Origin: Thermoplasmata archaeon
GTDB lineage: Archaea; Thermoplasmatota; Thermoplasmata; GCA-020350865
Length of the DNA stretch: 64,000 nt
Reading direction: 5' to 3'
Assembly (NCBI GenBank): GCA_020348445.1
Contig: CP070751.1
Span: 4,717,060 to 4,781,059 of the forward strand
The notes beneath the pieces were generated by a model. The model searched no databases and had not been told where the DNA came from. It was given only the letters and a program-made list of their open reading frames with translations. Both the position numbers and the translations under genes were made by a program. Positions within the stretch are counted from its first letter, which is position 1. Each line of letters begins with the position of its first letter. Below, piece by piece: positions 24,935 through 31,054 of the stretch.

Positions 24935-25682
24935 CCCAATAAAAAGAACAGAGACCCTGGAAAAATATGCATTTAAAGGAGAAAGCAGGGCCTATTATCG
25001 CTTCCGGCCAGCTAAGTGGTATGGAGGTATAGTCACAGGGGATGTGACCTGCTGTAACCTTCTATGCGCCTTCTGCTGGGCAGGTGATAAAATAAGGCAT
25101 CACCCAGGGCAAGTTGGTAAGTTCTATACTCCTGAAGAGGTCTTCAAGAAGCTGTGCTCAATAGGTGATAAAAAAGGATACAGATTGATGAGGCTCTCGG
25201 GTCAGGAGCCCACAATTGGAAGGGAGCATCTGTTAAAACTCCTTTCGCTCGTTGATAAAACAAAGTACAGGTTCATTCTCGAGACCAACGGAATTCTAAT
25301 CGGCCATGAAAAGGAATATGCTGAAGCCCTTTCCAAATTCAAAAACCTCCATGTCAGAGTCTCGCTGAAAGGCACGAATGAGGAGGAATTTTCTGCCCTA
25401 ACCGACGCAAATCCCGAGGGATTTTCCCTTCAACTCAAAGGACTTGAAAACCTGGTTGCAGCTGGTGTCTCCTGTCACCCTTCAGTTATGGTATCCTTCT
25501 CTGACCCAGGGAATATAAGAAAATTGGGGGAGCGTCTTGCAGCCGTGGCCCCCTTCCTAAAAAAGGAGATGGAAATAGAGGAGCTGATTTTATATCCCCA
25601 TGTTACCAAGCGTCTAAAAGACACGGATTTTAAATATAGAGTTGGACACGATCCCGGGTGTGTTCCAAAAGAATTGATTTGA
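24927..25682 (+). CDS. Radical SAM protein of an uncharacterised archaeal family (COG5014-like)
   Basis: CNLLCAFC (CxxxCxxC), LSGQEP and ETNG. The ATG at 24927 overlaps the trm5 stop by 8 nt and is more plausible than the track start at 24849. Confidence 0.85.
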   Translation: MYDPIKRTETLEKYAFKGESRAYYRFRPAKWYGGIVTGDVTCCNLLCAFCWAGDKIRHHPGQVGKFYTPEEVFKKLCSIGDKKGYRLMRLSGQEPTIGREHLLKLLSLVDKTKYRFILETNGILIGHEKEYAEALSKFKNLHVRVSLKGTNEEEFSALTDANPEGFSLQLKGLENLVAAGVSCHPSVMVSFSDPGNIRKLGERLAAVAPFLKKEMEIEELILYPHVTKRLKDTDFKYRVGHDPGCVPKELI

Positions 25683-25726
25683 CCTTATAGGTAGAATCCT
25701 TTAGAATAGTAATCCCATTGAAATAT

Positions 25727-26449
25727 TCAATCTACCTTTTCAAGGGCATTTCGGCCTTCATGCGATTGAATTTGCCAGATTCCTTGTTGTTCGTAGTACT
25801 CAAAAATCCCAGTGAAAACAACATCGTCGCCATATTGTATCCTCATCTCATCCCTATCCACAAACTGGGTGATGTTGAAAACAATGCAGTTCACAGAGTA
25901 ATATCCATCATCGCTTGTATTTTGAAGGGTGAACGTGAAAGCTTTGATGCTCTCTATTTCTTCGATCTTCCAGACATTGCCCCTGACCACCACCTGTACA
26001 CCCTCAAAAACCTCGGGCCTTTTGAGGATGACATTTAAAGGAATGATGTTGTTAGCTGCAGTTTGAAGAAGCTCGATTCCCTCGGAAGACATAACGTGAA
26101 TAAGAATCTCACCTTTGTAATCCTCCACAAGTCCCGAGACCCTGATCTTAGCCCCCGGAATCAATTTATCCTGATGATCAAGATTTTCCACGGCATCTGA
26201 ATCCACGTTCACTTCCACGGTTTTACCAGATTCGTAATCCACCAATATGAGTGAAAGGTCCCCGTCCTGCCAGGTCTTTACCTCTTTGATATTGCCCTCG
26301 ACCTCCACCATACTTCCAATGTACTTCGGCCCCAAATCGCCGATGGACACTGTCTTTTCCTCTATCATAACGGCATAGGCATAGATCCCGAAGATACCGA
26401 TAAGCGAAATAAGAATCACAAGTAAGATGAGCTTCGGCTTTTCCATCAT
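25727..26449 (-). CDS. Membrane-anchored protein with two OB-fold domains
   Basis: N-terminal hydrophobic helix, then VEVEGNIKEV...GAKIRVSGLVEDYKGEILI and VVVRGNV...GDDVVFTGIFEYY. Confidence 0.7.
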   Translation of the reverse strand: MMEKPKLILLVILISLIGIFGIYAYAVMIEEKTVSIGDLGPKYIGSMVEVEGNIKEVKTWQDGDLSLILVDYESGKTVEVNVDSDAVENLDHQDKLIPGAKIRVSGLVEDYKGEILIHVMSSEGIELLQTAANNIIPLNVILKRPEVFEGVQVVVRGNVWKIEEIESIKAFTFTLQNTSDDGYYSVNCIVFNITQFVDRDEMRIQYGDDVVFTGIFEYYEQQGIWQIQSHEGRNALEKVD

Positions 26450-26549
26450 GTAAAAGGGGGTATGGATGATAAGGGTAATAAAATATACTCTTTTGGGCCC
26501 CTCTCCTACTCTGTATTATATTTGGGGCGTAACTAAGAAAAGTAAAAAA

Positions 26550-26573
26550 AGCCACTGAAGGGATTTTGGAACC
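26550..26573 (-). repeat. Duplicated 3' end of tRNA-Thr (att-like relic)
   Basis: agccactgaagggattttggaacc versus tRNA 26680-26701 agccactgaagggatttgaacc: 17 nt identical, then a short indel. Followed on the minus strand by its own T-run. Confidence 0.8.
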
Positions 26574-26679
26574 TAAAACTTTTTGAGACTCGCCTGCGCT
26601 GGCCAATGCTCACCAAAAAGTTTCAGCCATCCAAAAACCTCGCATTGGCCTGCTCGGCTCGCATTTTGAAAAAAGAAAG

Positions 26680-26751
26680 AGCCACTGAAGGGATTTGAAC
26701 CCCTGATCTGCTGATTACGAATCAGCCGCTCTACCGCTGAGCTACAGTGGC
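26680..26751 (-). tRNA. tRNA-Thr(CGT), intronless, CCA not encoded
   Basis: Minus strand reads GCCACTG TAGCTCAGCGGTAGAGC G GCTGA-TT CGT AA-TCAGC AGATC AGGGG TTCAAAT CCCTT CAGTGGC T, a full cloverleaf. Confidence 0.97.
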
Positions 26752-26908
26752 AAATGATGTCCATACGACGTAGCTTAGCTGGCTAGTGGAGACCGAAGGT
26801 TTCCACGAAAGACCGCTGAGCTACAGTGGCATATGTATTTGATGTGAGTAGCTTAGCCGGTGCAGAGGGGCTCGCAATGGCACCTCCAAACCACTAAGCT
26901 ACAGTGGC
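26752..26908 (-). repeat. Two tandem 79/78-nt units, each: tRNA 5' 18-mer, 30-nt variable segment, 13-nt antisense of the tRNA D-arm, 17-18 nt variable linker
   Basis: The 18-mer at 26813-26830 is identical to tRNA nt 1-18, and the copy at 26891-26908 has two transitions. Anti-repeats CCAGCTAAGCTAC (26770-26782) and CCGGCTAAGCTAC (26848-26860). Confidence 0.9.
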
Positions 26909-26938
26909 ATCGAGCTTACAGCATGAAATACCACTGAG

Positions 26939-26952
26939 CTTAAAAGGGTTTT
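26939..26952 (-). promoter_or_regulatory. Probable BRE/TATA promoter of the tRNA-Thr precursor
   Basis: Minus strand AAAACCC-TTTTAAG, about 30 nt upstream of the distal tRNA 5' copy. No TATA-like sequence at the usual distance from the intact tRNA. Confidence 0.6.
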
Positions 26953-26972
26953 GTGAAAAATATGAGGTGTTT

Positions 26973-27143
26973 TTGGCTTTTATAATCCAATTCAATCGAT
27001 ACCCTGATTTTGCCGACGTGATAAGAGATGAGCATATTAAAGAGATTAGAAAAAATCTGATTTTCATCAATATAACTGCTCTCATCTTTCTTACCATCTT
27101 TATTAGGATTAACCACGCCCTTAATAAAAAGTTGTATCGGTAA
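26973..27143 (+). CDS. Possible small hydrophobic protein (56 aa)
   Basis: TTG start just after a GAGGTG Shine-Dalgarno, hydrophobic segment LIFINITALIFLTIFI, and a stop abutting the convergent gene. No family recognised. Confidence 0.25.
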   Translation: MAFIIQFNRYPDFADVIRDEHIKEIRKNLIFINITALIFLTIFIRINHALNKKLYR

Positions 27144-27144
27144 T

Positions 27145-27732
27145 TTATCCTTCCTTTTCAATATGCTCTTTGATCAGAACATTTACAGAATTTACTAAAG
27201 TGTTGAGGCTATCCACAGCTCTCGTCAATTCTTCCCTTGTCCTTGTTTGCTCTTTATTCATCGAAATCAATGTTTCTGAAACGATCCCGTATTTTTCATC
27301 TAATTTGTTGAAATGCTCATCAGTGTGAACGGTAAGGTTATCAACCTTTTGCCCTACTTCCTCCACTTTTTGACCTACACAATCAATCTTTTGACCTAAC
27401 CGATTGAAGTGCTTTCCGGCTGTGGCATATCCCTGGAACATTTCATATGCTAAATCACCGGTCTTCACTTCAAATCTCTTGAATTCCCCCTTTGGCTTGC
27501 TGAAATTTCGCCTTACAGACTCCACATAAACCATGTCGTTCTTCAGTCTGATTTTTTCAGAGAATTCATCTATGGCTTTTCTTTCGCCTTCGCACACTAT
27601 TCTGACCTCCCCATCTGTGAGGTTCTCGATATATCCGACCAATTTTAACTTTTGAGCAGTTCTCATGATAAATGCTCTATAGCCGGCTTCCTGCACATCG
27701 CCTCTTATCTTTAAAATGGCCCTTGTTTTCAT
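27145..27732 (-). CDS. Acylphosphatase-domain protein with C-terminal coiled coil
   Basis: IRGDVQEAGYRAFI and GYIENLTDGEVRIVCEG retain the catalytic Arg and Asn. About 100 aa heptad tail. Own TATA (GAAACTTATTAA) and GGAGA Shine-Dalgarno. Confidence 0.8.
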   Translation of the reverse strand: MKTRAILKIRGDVQEAGYRAFIMRTAQKLKLVGYIENLTDGEVRIVCEGERKAIDEFSEKIRLKNDMVYVESVRRNFSKPKGEFKRFEVKTGDLAYEMFQGYATAGKHFNRLGQKIDCVGQKVEEVGQKVDNLTVHTDEHFNKLDEKYGIVSETLISMNKEQTRTREELTRAVDSLNTLVNSVNVLIKEHIEKEG

Positions 27733-27809
27733 AATCTCCAGAAGCGCCCTATTGCTTTTTAGAATTAATAAGTTTCGGTCTTAAAAGATATATTACGTCA
27801 GCGTTTATC

Positions 27810-27857
27810 TCAAGATAAATGTTCAACATACAGCTCAATTTCTTTTGGCTCGTACAT
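27810..27857 (-). pseudogene. Probable 5' stub of a lost toxin (nucleotidyltransferase) gene, MYEPKEIELYVEHLS*
   Basis: ATG overlaps the last 23 nt of the antitoxin gene in another frame and stops after 15 codons. Identity is inferred from position only. Confidence 0.35.
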
Positions 27858-28422
27858 ACTTTTTAACCATTATATCATAAGCTTCTTGACAAACCCCGCC
27901 CTCTCTTTTTAGGTCTAACAAGACCTGTGGAGTTGAAGCGACCCACAATCCCTTTATTTTTTGCTTTTTATAGAGAACATGGGGATCGTAAACGAGTAAT
28001 CTGAAATTACCTTTGCCAACTAATCCTTTTTTCACAATTTTATCTTTCCACTTAGGAATATCGTCTTTCACAACATATATATCTGCACTTGACGGGAATA
28101 AATAATGATTGAGTAGGTTTTCAGCAAAGTATGTTGTTAGAGCATAATCCATATCAATTTTTTTTAAGAACTTGGATGGTGAATCCATAAAAAAATCATA
28201 ATGCAATGGCTTTCTTGATATGGATTCCCAGATATCCAATAGACTTTCTATTTTAACAACTTTGGTTTCTTTAACGAGTCTTCTTTTCTGTAGAGTTTGC
28301 AGATATTCGATCGTCCAGCTAGTGGAGGTTTCCGAGAGTTTTGCAACTCGGTATTTAGTGAGGGTACCATTAGGTTCATTGAGAAGAACGCGGAGGATCC
28401 GTTCCCTTTTTTCACCATGCAT
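27835..28422 (-). CDS. Winged-HTH protein with an AbiEi-like C-terminal domain (type IV toxin-antitoxin antitoxin-like)
   Basis: N-terminal HTH (LTKYRVAKLSETSTSWTIEYLQTL), then YALTTYFAENLL...ADIYV and VASTPQVLLDLKREGG, typical of AbiEi-like C-terminal domains. Confidence 0.7.
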   Translation of the reverse strand: MHGEKRERILRVLLNEPNGTLTKYRVAKLSETSTSWTIEYLQTLQKRRLVKETKVVKIESLLDIWESISRKPLHYDFFMDSPSKFLKKIDMDYALTTYFAENLLNHYLFPSSADIYVVKDDIPKWKDKIVKKGLVGKGNFRLLVYDPHVLYKKQKIKGLWVASTPQVLLDLKREGGVCQEAYDIMVKKYVRAKRN

Positions 28423-28423
28423 A

Positions 28424-28503
28424 ATATGTCGGAAAGGTTATACGTTTATAAAGGTTTCCGATATATCGGAGTTAAGAGTTATTTAAATAGGTTTCCGATA
28501 TAT
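28424..28503 (-). promoter_or_regulatory. Promoter and operator of the antitoxin gene
   Basis: TTTATAAA at 28445-28452, perfect palindrome tccgatatatcgga at 28457-28470, direct repeat aggtttccgatatat at 28452-28466 and 28489-28503, and inverted copy atatgtcggaaa at 28424-28435. Confidence 0.75.
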
Positions 28504-28566
28504 TTGTATTAATTATAAGACTCAATTATATAAACGCTTGTATCAATACATCTAAAATTAGTTTCA

Positions 28567-29424
28567 TTATTCTTTTTCCTCGGGAGTTATCTTATCTTCA
28601 GGTTCTCCTTTCGTCTTGGTTGGCTCTTTTGAACCTAACTTTCTTGAGGCCAAGATTATGGCCACCAGAGCTACAATTATGCCTAAGATTCCCGATCCCA
28701 TGGCTGTATAGACAAGATTATTGTCCGGATCCTTCTCAATTATTGTCTCTTTCTCGGTGCTCTCAAGGATTTCTATTTCTTTTGTAAGATTGTTTATCTC
28801 TAACCAAAGCTCTGCATTTTCAGATTCAAGTTGAAGCATCGAATTGTTTAATTCATTTATCCTTTTATCGAGTTGGTTTATTTGCTGTTTAAGGTCATTG
28901 ATTTGAAATTGAAGTTCTTCAAGATTAGAAGCAGTTGGGGTATAGTTTATGATTATATCGTTGAAATAGAAATTATTTGTCCCACTTTCCGAAATGGAAA
29001 GGTGTATATTATCTAACGAACAATTTAAACTCAAGAATATATCGTCATTAATTTCAGCGCCCCAATATATATCATACTCGTACAATTCGATTTCTAGACT
29101 ATAATTTGACCTTCCTCCCCCAAAGCTCGATTTTACTGTGATGTTATTGACAAATATGGGATATGTAAATTGAAGCCAAAAATGATTGGAAAATTCACTG
29201 CTATCTTCATAAATAATACCTGAACTTAAATCACCGTCAAATATTTTTGTTGCATTAGTGGGGTCACCATTTAAATAGACTCCTGAGGTAAAAGGAGTAT
29301 TAATAGCATCTGATTCTACAATTTCACCTATATCGAAAGTCTCAGCATTTGTTCCAGGTAAAACCAAACAGCTGAAAATGCCGATCATCGATAATATTGC
29401 ACAAAGTCTTCCTCTGTTTTTCAT
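28567..29424 (-). CDS. Hypothetical membrane-anchored exported protein: beta-sandwich-like domain, coiled coil, C-terminal TM helix
   Basis: ATG at 29424 preceded by GAGGGA. Signal peptide, KIFDGDLSSG (discoidin-like), heptads LQFQINDLKQQINQLDKRINEL and a TM helix. AT-rich coding sequence. Confidence 0.7.
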   Translation of the reverse strand: MKNRGRLCAILSMIGIFSCLVLPGTNAETFDIGEIVESDAINTPFTSGVYLNGDPTNATKIFDGDLSSGIIYEDSSEFSNHFWLQFTYPIFVNNITVKSSFGGGRSNYSLEIELYEYDIYWGAEINDDIFLSLNCSLDNIHLSISESGTNNFYFNDIIINYTPTASNLEELQFQINDLKQQINQLDKRINELNNSMLQLESENAELWLEINNLTKEIEILESTEKETIIEKDPDNNLVYTAMGSGILGIIVALVAIILASRKLGSKEPTKTKGEPEDKITPEEKE

Positions 29425-29701
29425 GATATCCCTCAATTTGTATATCACAATTGTTGTTAATATAATTTATTAGAAGAGGATTTAGGCGGTAGATAAAAAG
29501 AATAGGGCAAGTGATATTCCATACATTATTTATAGAAGAGGTTTTGATGTTCCGTAACGATGATTAAATAGTACTATTTCCGAAGGGCGCGCCCGTTTAA
29601 TAGTAAAAGCTGGGGATTACATTTAAATTGGGCCAAAAAACATTGCTCGGAGCAAATGTTTATATATGGGATTAATTTAATATTGTTATGAGGTTGGATA
29701 A

Positions 29702-31054
29702 ATGAATAGCGATAGGAAGAAGTTAGTAATTCGTATATTCTCGATTTTGTTGATAATTTTACTCTCGATTAAAGGATTGTTTTTAATCCCTTCTATGATA
29801 GACAACGCAACTTCTGAAGGATCGACAGAAATTAGTGGTTTCATATCATCGGATGCTGTATGGGCTTTGGAAAATAGTCCTTATATAATAATTGAAAACA
29901 CTTTAGTTGAAGAAAATGTCAATTTAACTATCGAACCTGGTGTAATCATTAAATTCAACTCAGATAAATATATACGTATTGATGGAACATTATATGCAGT
30001 AGGAACTGAATCAAATATAATTACTTTTACTTCAAATTCAAAATCACCTGAAAGAGGTGATTGGGGTAAAATACAAATCGAAAAAACCAGTAAAGATTCT
30101 ATTATAAAATATTGCAGAGTTGAATATTCATCAGAGGGAATTGATTGTAGCGCATTAATGATTTCTATAACAGATAGCACCTTTTATACCAATGGAAATG
30201 GGATTGATTTGCATGATTGCGACTCAATTATAATGAATAATGAATTTATCAACAATGAACTTGGAGTTAACGAGGGGAAAAATATAATTAACAATGTATT
30301 TATTAAGAATGGTCGAAGCATTCTCTATGGAGAAAATGTTACTAATAATATTGTTATAAATAATGATAGAGGAATTATAAATTCAAATCTTATACAAAAT
30401 AACTATATCCTTAATAATAATGGGGGTGTCGATATTGGGAGGAAAATTAAAGTCTATAATAACTATATTGTTAATAATAGTGAATATGGTATCAACATTT
30501 TAGGTTCGGCAAATGAAAATATCACGAATAATATTATTACGAATAATGAAATTGGAATAGAAATGGAACAGGGGGCAACTTCTCAAATAATGAATAACAA
30601 AATTGCTAATAATAAAATCGGAATTAATATTTACTTTAGTTCTTCTTCTAATGAAGATACAAATTTTACAATAAGAAATAATAATATCCAAGATAATATT
30701 GAGTATAATTTCCGAAATAGTGTAGAAAAAAAATATTATATGAATTATAACTGGTGGGGAACGACAGATACATCCTTAATAGATATATCTATTTATGATT
30801 ATCAAGATGATTTTGAATTAGGTAAAGTTGAATATTTACCAATCTTAGAATCACCAGTGGATGTTATACTTCAAAATATGCTCCCAATTTCAGAATTAGA
30901 TCTAAGTCAATATGATTTAGATGAACCCAAAGAGGATTCGGATGATGACTTCATAGATTTTCTTGGATCAGAATTCTTCATTGCAATTAGCGTAATTGTC
31001 ATTGTCTTAGGATTAAGTATATTCTTTTATAGAAGAAAAAGAAGAGATGTCTAG
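29702..31054 (+). CDS. Right-handed parallel beta-helix (pectin-lyase-like/NosD) surface protein with C-terminal TM helix and RRKRR
   Basis: SPYIII...LTIEPGVIIKF...GTLYAVGT...ITFTS...GDWGKI, Asn-ladder repeats and MNYNWWG. Very AT-rich. Confidence 0.85.
   Translation: MNSDRKKLVIRIFSILLIILLSIKGLFLIPSMIDNATSEGSTEISGFISSDAVWALENSPYIIIENTLVEENVNLTIEPGVIIKFNSDKYIRIDGTLYAVGTESNIITFTSNSKSPERGDWGKIQIEKTSKDSIIKYCRVEYSSEGIDCSALMISITDSTFYTNGNGIDLHDCDSIIMNNEFINNELGVNEGKNIINNVFIKNGRSILYGENVTNNIVINNDRGIINSNLIQNNYILNNNGGVDIGRKIKVYNNYIVNNSEYGINILGSANENITNNIITNNEIGIEMEQGATSQIMNNKIANNKIGINIYFSSSSNEDTNFTIRNNNIQDNIEYNFRNSVEKKYYMNYNWWGTTDTSLIDISIYDYQDDFELGKVEYLPILESPVDVILQNMLPISELDLSQYDLDEPKEDSDDDFIDFLGSEFFIAISVIVIVLGLSIFFYRRKRRDV

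Follow-up and report, generated by a model that had tools for sequence, protein, structure and literature searches.

The tRNA-Thr(CGT) gene of the uncultured Thermoplasmata archaeon studied here is preceded by two tandem, non-coding units that are built in large part from the sequence of the tRNA itself. Each is characterized by a copy of the first 18 nucleotides of the tRNA (A), a 30-nt insert, an inverted copy of the 5' side of the D-arm (A') and a short tail, with no gene cassettes in between. These units are members of a family found in this genome within the leaders of 10 tRNA genes and restricted to a single genus among the genomes of the class that were searched. The interpretation that we favor, and hold with evenly balanced confidence, is that they are DNA-level fold-back repeats linked to tRNA genes, which were added with a duplication of the first 18 bases of the tRNA and are passively transcribed as part of a long leader. 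In what follows, the window refers to the whole stretch of 64,000 nucleotides that was analyzed, and positions are those of the window unless another contig is named. Read along the minus strand, the locus comprises a TATA-like box, a native leader, the two units and the intact tRNA (Table 1), and this order, along with the coordinates of its components, is as had been laid out in an earlier sequence-only reading.

Table 1. Features of the tRNA-Thr(CGT) locus, with positions in the window
Feature	Position	Strand	Basis or remarks
BRE/TATA-like promoter box (CAAAAC CCTTTTAAG)	26939..26953	minus	the sole such box upstream of the tRNA; promoter role probable from position and conservation
TATA-like box CTTTTAAG	26946-26939	minus	31-38 nt before distal A
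Native 5' leader, apparently pushed upstream by the units	26909..26938	minus	alignment with congener leaders
Unit 1 (distal), whole	26831..26908	minus	GAGG/CCTC core; 78 nt
Unit 1, parts	A 26908-26891; insert 26890-26861 (30 nt); A' 26860-26848; tail 26847-26831 (17 nt)	minus	
Unit 2 (proximal), whole	26752..26830	minus	C-GTGG...CCAC-T core; 79 nt; 48 bits, E 3.6e-8 with covariance model R1
Unit 2, parts	A 26830-26813; insert 26812-26783 (30 nt); A' 26782-26770; tail 26769-26752 (18 nt)	minus	
tRNA-Thr(CGT), intact, intron-free	26751..26679	minus	ARAGORN; Rfam tRNA model, 73.4 bits
T-rich stretch (CTTTCTTTTTTC) immediately 3' of the tRNA	26667..26678	minus	likely archaeal terminator, judging from its sequence
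94-nt structured element, multi-copy family (model R2)	26571..26664	minus	112.8 bits with R2
Partial copy of the tRNA-Thr 3' end (damaged T loop + CCCTTCAGTGGCT), then T-run	26544..26573	minus	direct repeat D3, 86% over 28 nt

The repeated segment A, which had been recognized as nucleotides 1-18 of the tRNA, occurs as an 18-mer three times in the window against an expectation of 0.05 (100 shuffles), and the repeats upstream of the tRNA are spaced 79 and 78 nt from start to start. Its counterpart A' had been described as antisense to a segment of the D-arm. This holds, with the refinement that A' complements the form of the D-arm with T at position 13 and has one additional base; in unit 2 this leaves a C13/A mismatch against the local A. 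The inserts are equal in length, as was claimed, but the further claim that they are unrelated in sequence has to be given up: they conform to one and the same pattern, Y-GNGG-(mismatch)-short stem-loop-CCNC-T, with GTGG/CCAC in unit 2 and GAGG/CCTC in unit 1. Each unit is also predicted, much as had been anticipated, to fold into a hairpin of ~55 nt that leaves nucleotides 1-6 of the tRNA copy unpaired (unit 1: -27.0 kcal/mol, z -2.9; unit 2: -23.5 kcal/mol, z -4.2). When the 237-nt leader and tRNA are folded as a whole the z-score is -5.3. On the other side of the gene, the locus continues with a downstream module placed beyond the T-run behind the tRNA, namely a structured element of 94 nt and, after it, a copy of the last 17 nt of the tRNA. 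The neighboring genes are of a housekeeping nature and code for Trm5/TYW2, a radical SAM protein, an OB-fold protein, an acylphosphatase and phosphoglycerate kinase (PGK).

The history of the site is best seen by aligning the same tRNA-Thr(CGT) locus from five congeners: this genome (G000) and G001, G002, G003 and G004, of which G001 (CP070739.1, labelled as a Methanomassiliicoccales archaeon MAG) is an independent complete assembly. The gene has no unit in G002, G003 and G004, one in G001 and two in this genome, with unit 2 missing from all of the other four. The box CAAAA..CTTTTA is invariant in all five and lies ~31-38 nt ahead of the first GCCACTG in each, which bears out the earlier observation that the only TATA-like box is spaced for the distal copy. 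In G002, G003 and G004 the PGK gene ends ~70 nt before the conserved box (CAAAAYCCTTTTAA) and the tRNA starts ~31-38 nt past it, and the leaders of these three, which directly abut the tRNA, align with the native leader of this genome. The layout in G001 is box, leader, one unit and a tRNA with an intron. At every filled site compared, the promoter and the native leader are distal to the units. Given that the native leader is always on the far side, the difference between an empty and a filled site comes down to the insert, A', the tail and one extra copy of A. From a TATA center near 26943 and the usual archaeal spacing, we infer that transcription would start at ~26917, giving a leader of ~165-166 nt; the comparison of promoters supports the ~165-nt leader that had been proposed. 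The AGCTCAGTGG piece at 26940-26931, which we had entertained as part of a third, degenerate unit (26940-26922), was rejected as such, as it belongs to the native leader and is homologous to the leaders of the unit-free congeners.

Unit 1 is identical between this genome and G001 at 71 of 78 positions (91%), with 17/18 in A, 26/30 in the insert, 11/13 in A' and 17/17 in the tail. The native leader beside it retains 17 of 32 (53%; Fisher p 2e-5 for the comparison with unit 1). In the A' of G001, two of the pairing bases have been lost. The relatives differ in the number of units (0/1/2), as had been thought worth examining, but they display no turnover of spacers. An assembly artefact is unlikely, since unit 1 recurs in the independent complete assembly of G001 and family members are present in five metagenome contigs.

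Two further differences were noticed at this locus. Between the PGK gene and the tRNA-Thr promoter this genome has four ORFs (window 27145-31054), at a place where the PGK genes of G002-G004 end ~70 nt before the promoter. These code for an acylphosphatase fusion, a beta-helix/NosD-like protein and two proteins without a clear family match, one of which has weak coiled-coil-type Pfam matches only. Moreover, the tRNA-Thr(CGT) gene is interrupted at the canonical position by an intron of ~120-140 nt in G001 (L012:1650-1795, ~140 nt) and G003 (L036:638-760), which is absent in this genome, G002 and G004. The introns of G001 and G003 resemble those of tRNA-Thr(TGT) and contain small hairpins of their own.

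The units at tRNA-Thr(CGT) are part of a wider family. A tRNA scan of the 5.16-Mb genome with ARAGORN revealed that ~10 tRNA genes are preceded by copies of the first 16 nt of the tRNA and that ~14 are followed by copies of its last 16 nt. The short upstream units have a common plan: nucleotides 1 to ~12-21 of the tRNA, an invariant C-GTGG...CCAC-T hairpin, an inverted 5' part of the tRNA and a tail of 15-25 nt. The C and T that flank the GTGG/CCAC helix are unable to pair with each other. Unit 2 possesses this core, unit 1 has GAGG/CCTC as a covarying form, and GATG/CATC is found at Leu and Pro genes. The C-GTGG..CCAC-T hairpin is found too in the modules behind tRNA genes. We built a covariance model (R1) from 17 units and searched it against this 5.16-Mb genome, all five genomes of the genus and a further 56 from the class. 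In this genome it yields 19 matches, each lying no more than 250 nt ahead of one of 10 tRNA genes and sharing its strand, with none elsewhere in the 5.16 Mb. It has matches in all five genus genomes (18, 6, 4, 4 and 2) and none in the 56 other class genomes. Thus, among the class genomes searched, the units constitute a family restricted to this genus. Their number at a given gene differs between species (Ala(TGC) 3/2/2/1, Lys 2/1/3, Thr(TGT) 2/1), and arrays have 3 units at most. An exact-pattern scan with the Thr unit recovered G001 only among genome contigs and nothing in metagenomes; the same kind of scan with the Ala unit recovered 25 contigs, of which 5 pass the model, these being the five metagenome contigs with Ala-type units. 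As an aside, a tight cluster of ~25 tRNA genes in this genome, which lies outside the window (G000:C1:4640570-4643566), is devoid of fold-back units on either side, 5' or 3', in which it differs from the dispersed tRNA genes; this cluster may be foreign in origin.

Certain features of the units are informative regarding their origin and spread. In unit 2, A has the C13 that is found in the local tRNA gene, and A' complements T13, which is the state in G001-G003. This suggests that A was copied from, or converted by, the local gene, and that A' came with the insert. The A' and tail of unit 1 match the proximal tRNA-Thr(TGT) unit of the same genome at 81%, versus 72% for the adjacent unit 2, and the nearest relatives of the core of unit 2 are likewise the Thr(TGT) units. 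The units at Ala genes resemble one another, as do those at genes with the 5' end GCTGAGG or GCCGAGG, which we read as serine isoacceptors (ARAGORN labels two of them Pro and Ala). In light of this likeness within the Thr, Ala and GCTGAGG/GCCGAGG groups, the spread of the units seems to track similarity of the tRNA 5' ends. We also considered a polar mode of growth, in which the newest unit is the tRNA-proximal one. This fits Thr(CGT), but at tRNA-Ala(TGC) the tail types occur in both orders; as their order differs between species there, growth is not simply polar. Gain of a unit and its precise loss at a site are indistinguishable without a rooted species tree.

If the units are indeed DNA-level repeats, a single unit would represent ~60 nt of inserted DNA along with a second copy of nucleotides 1-18 of the tRNA gene. 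The inserted DNA would comprise the G-N-G-G/C-C-N-C hairpin, a ready-made inverted copy of the 5' side of the D-arm and a short tail. With its first 18 nt duplicated, the tRNA gene would stay intact and its old promoter and leader would be pushed upstream. The repeated A segment might allow units to be gained, or lost with precision, and they could spread among tRNA genes with like 5' ends, the partner in this case being the other tRNA-Thr gene. Such units would carry no guides, and any activity they have would be exerted by the DNA itself, in the form of folded or palindromic sites; their transcription in the ~165-nt leader, which RNase P would then have to remove, would be passive. The analysis establishes the anatomy of the units, their place in a family, the confinement of that family to the genus, the empty and filled sites and the lack of an RNA-strand bias; the mechanism of insertion and its enzyme, the start of transcription and the removal of the leader by RNase P are the parts of this scheme that we infer.

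The main competing explanation is that the units have a function as RNA within the pre-tRNA leader. Under it, the hairpins or the antisense A' would steer the folding, processing or stability of tRNA-Thr, or else the units would be released as small RNAs, like the rtT RNA of the tyrT operon of Escherichia coli. We regard this as less likely than the DNA-level reading. The units are always located between the promoter and the tRNA, in the orientation of the latter, and so must be co-transcribed with it. Orthologous units keep their stems through compensatory changes, e.g. CAG/CTG to AGG/CCT, the C/T mismatch flanking the GTGG/CCAC helix is invariant, and the loops of several units are UUCG on the sense strand. 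The greater conservation of unit 1 relative to the adjoining leader, extending to its entire tail, along with the compensatory changes, makes it likely that the fold is under some constraint or that the units have a source that is recent and shared. Both count against the DNA-level reading: the compensatory changes fit selection on the fold, and the conservation of unit 1 fits functional constraint, though also a more recent common source. There is in addition the E. coli parallel, in which repeats with inverted and direct copies of a tRNA end sit in the small-RNA gene rttR.

Against a functional leader RNA, however, the units have no sense-strand bias in folding. When 18 units were folded on both strands, the antisense strand was as good or better in 13 and the sense strand better in 5; the G-U pairs over these 18 units amount to 25 on the sense and 20 on the antisense strand, and unit 2 itself reaches -33.2 kcal/mol as antisense against -23.5 as sense. 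The 94-nt element served as a control: its sense strand is the more stable one in all 13 copies, with a mean difference of 8.8 kcal/mol, these copies being paralogues and hence not independent. The lack of strand bias, the behavior of this control, the occurrence of the C-GTGG..CCAC-T hairpin in modules behind tRNA genes and the position of the downstream module of the window past a T-run together favor a DNA-level feature. The three congeners without any unit at tRNA-Thr(CGT) indicate that the units are dispensable. At least one specific form of the RNA-based explanation, the folding switch put forward in the sequence-only reading, in which the proximal A' pairs with the D-arm of the tRNA, finds little support, given the absent sense-strand advantage, the degraded A' of G001 and the unit-free congeners; moreover, the proximal A' is already paired with its own A.

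The units could also be decayed attachment-site scars, left at the 5' end of the tRNA by serial integration and loss of elements with an integrase. Partial tRNA copies beside an intact gene, stacked by repeated events, are the usual mark of integrative elements (PMC9897764; 10.1101/2020.12.28.424599). The 3' partial copy downstream of tRNA-Thr(CGT) would agree with this, as would two integrase C-terminal fragments that adjoin tRNA-Leu(TAA) and tRNA-Met. Yet these fragments are all that was recovered of integrases: no full-length tyrosine recombinase or Phage_integrase protein was detected in the genome, 35 kb of which was masked, and there are no integrase or other element genes near the locus. 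Just ~60 nt of non-coding DNA lies between the copies of A, a fixed plan is common to 19 units at 10 tRNA genes, and the units include an inverted target copy, which integrase scars do not have. We therefore consider such scars improbable. Nevertheless, among the roles offered in the sequence-only reading, traces of insertion come nearest to what we observe, in that the empty and filled sites make both the inserted DNA and the 18-nt duplication legible; the units are, however, small and patterned family members rather than what is left of large integrated elements after decay. The remaining suggestion, a guide or spacer array that borrows the promoter and processing of the tRNA in the manner of CRISPR or TIGR arrays, is in our view hardly tenable. 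Repeats do alternate with inserts of equal length, and the congener comparison points to transcription from one promoter, but the inserts are conserved hairpins rather than variable guides and the arrays are short. Searches of the leader gave nothing meaningful among 50,697 phage records or 72,556 plasmids, and both insert cores are absent from IMG/VR; the spacer matches in viral or plasmid sequences that this idea calls for were thus not obtained. No Cas1 (PF01867) turned up in the single-contig genome of 5.16 Mb (35 kb masked), no cas-like or effector-like genes are present near the locus, and none of nine neighboring ORFs has a Nop domain. With no spacer turnover, neither targets nor Cas1 found, and housekeeping neighbors, the idea of a guide array falls.

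The search for an enzyme that might mobilize the units has a bearing on the DNA-level reading as well, and counts against it, for neither RVT_1, nor Cas1, nor a full-length tyrosine recombinase was found in the genome with its ~35 kb of masked sequence. Five genes for Y1 HUH transposases (Y1_Tnp) are present, along with two or three IS110-type genes. A link to IS200/IS605 was set aside, as the end hairpins of the one IS200-type copy that was examined are unlike the unit core, which is a further point against the DNA-level reading; so is the variation between species in the order of unit types, which speaks against a simple polarity of growth. Two other routes were considered and dropped: reverse transcription, as the 3' copies are without CCA and RVT_1 was not found, and insertion by Cas1 or a casposase, as Cas1 was not found. 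We also set aside, as unlikely from the sequence, the splicing of the distal A onto the body of the tRNA. The sequences before the two would-be splice sites are identical rather than complementary, and no BHB is seen in the predicted folds, which are continuous hairpins with 1-nt mismatches and have no 3-nt bulges around a 4-bp helix; the tRNA, moreover, is complete without the units. Separately, it is odd that even a XerA-type recombinase is apparently absent from this genome, 35 kb of which was masked.

Among described systems, the 178-bp repeats of the E. coli tyrT operon are the closest. These are located in the tyrT operon region and overlap the small-RNA gene rttR, with an unclear role, and the rtT RNA has a part in how the tyrT transcript is processed (10.1101/2024.07.17.603846). 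In the K-12 tyrT/tyrV locus (L127:505-1063) we observed that three such repeats behind tyrV overlap rttR, and that each has a direct copy of the tRNA-Tyr 3' end along with a 22-nt stretch that is 86% complementary to the T arm. As with the archaeal units, these are tandem units at a tRNA gene, each with a partial copy of the end of the adjacent tRNA, and the order of inverted copy followed by direct copy is shared with the archaeal downstream modules. The resemblance is one of kind only: the E. coli repeats are on the 3' side, 178 bp in length and confined to one operon, whereas the archaeal units are on the 5' side, 78-79 nt in length, have the C-GTGG..CCAC-T hairpin and occur at ~10 tRNA genes. 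The E. coli repeats encode rtT RNA, whose Rfam family is RtT (RF00391), included in Rfam 15. There is no sequence likeness, and RtT has no Rfam 15 match over 25500-28000 of the window at E up to 10.

Other known systems share one or another aspect of the units. The attachment-site copies of the SSV/pNOB8 type and tycheposons similarly have a direct partial tRNA copy beside an intact gene, but the units are without integrase or cargo, have ~60 nt between copies and possess an inverted target copy with a conserved hairpin. In the literature that we searched, partial tRNA copies are described only as scars of large elements, and no hairpin units of this kind were found. Casposon insertion produces a 14-15-bp duplication at the end of a tRNA-Pro gene in Aciduliprofundum. 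Duplication of the CRISPR repeat and of the casposon target site both result from Cas1-type integration (PMC5137440). The likeness to the units is that a defined border segment of a conserved element, 12-21 bp long, is duplicated to give a repeat-insert-repeat array; the differences are that no Cas1 was found here, that the inserts are not captured foreign DNA, and that no terminal inverted repeats were noticed on reading through the units. Both CRISPR and TIGR-Tas arrays differ from the units in their inserts, which in the units are conserved rather than variable and follow one hairpin plan, with no foreign matches and, as regards CRISPR, no cas1 found. Folded single-strand recombination sites are known from the attC sites of integrons and the attP site of the CTX phage, and REP/BIME are palindromes associated with RAYT. 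Like the units, these are non-coding, imperfect hairpins with conserved mismatches and dynamic copy number, and the stem of a folded site can mimic a target duplex. However, this genome yielded neither an IntI-type nor a full tyrosine recombinase, and it is the inner hairpin of the units that is conserved, not the outer arms. In place of the attC architecture (R''-L''...L'-R', GTTRRRY), the units have the motif C-GTGG..CCAC-T, with no cassettes between them. Unlike REP/BIME, they are not dispersed, all 19 copies being at tRNA genes, and the IS200-type ends of one copy differ from them.

tRNA genes are classic landing sites of mobile DNA, but small, gene-less repeats derived from a tRNA's own ends have barely been described, with the unexplained tyrT repeats of E. 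coli as the main earlier example. In the present case such repeats are archaeal, lie on the 5' side, have a strictly conserved hairpin and vary in number between sister species. In effect, they would force the tRNA to be synthesized with a leader of roughly 90-250 nt. The origin of the units could reveal a new route of insertion or recombination at tRNA genes, or a new layer in the control of tRNA maturation. More specifically, and with a low degree of confidence, they might be the footprint of an undescribed insertion of small fold-back DNA exactly at tRNA ends, in which an insert with an inverted target copy duplicates 12-21 bp without Cas1, reverse transcriptase or a known integrase, or might represent a new class of leader RNA controlling tRNA maturation. 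Their recognition also matters for annotation, as such pieces of a tRNA can be taken for split tRNAs or for the scars of integration.

The 94-nt element downstream of the tRNA belongs to a multi-copy family, which was found in 17 of 61 class genomes (8 genera), with as many as 19 copies in a single genome. Of the 24 predicted pairs of the element, 9 show compensatory changes. Pairing is possible between its 3' tail and an internal stretch, and the two sides co-vary in other genera; hence, it is possible that it adopts a pseudoknot. It has no Rfam match. A role as a riboswitch is not obvious, because the genes downstream of its copies are unrelated to each other. The orphan copy of the tRNA-Thr 3' end with its own T-run, found behind the 94-nt element, is present in G003 and absent in G004, where the element continues directly into the ribosome-binding site of the next gene.
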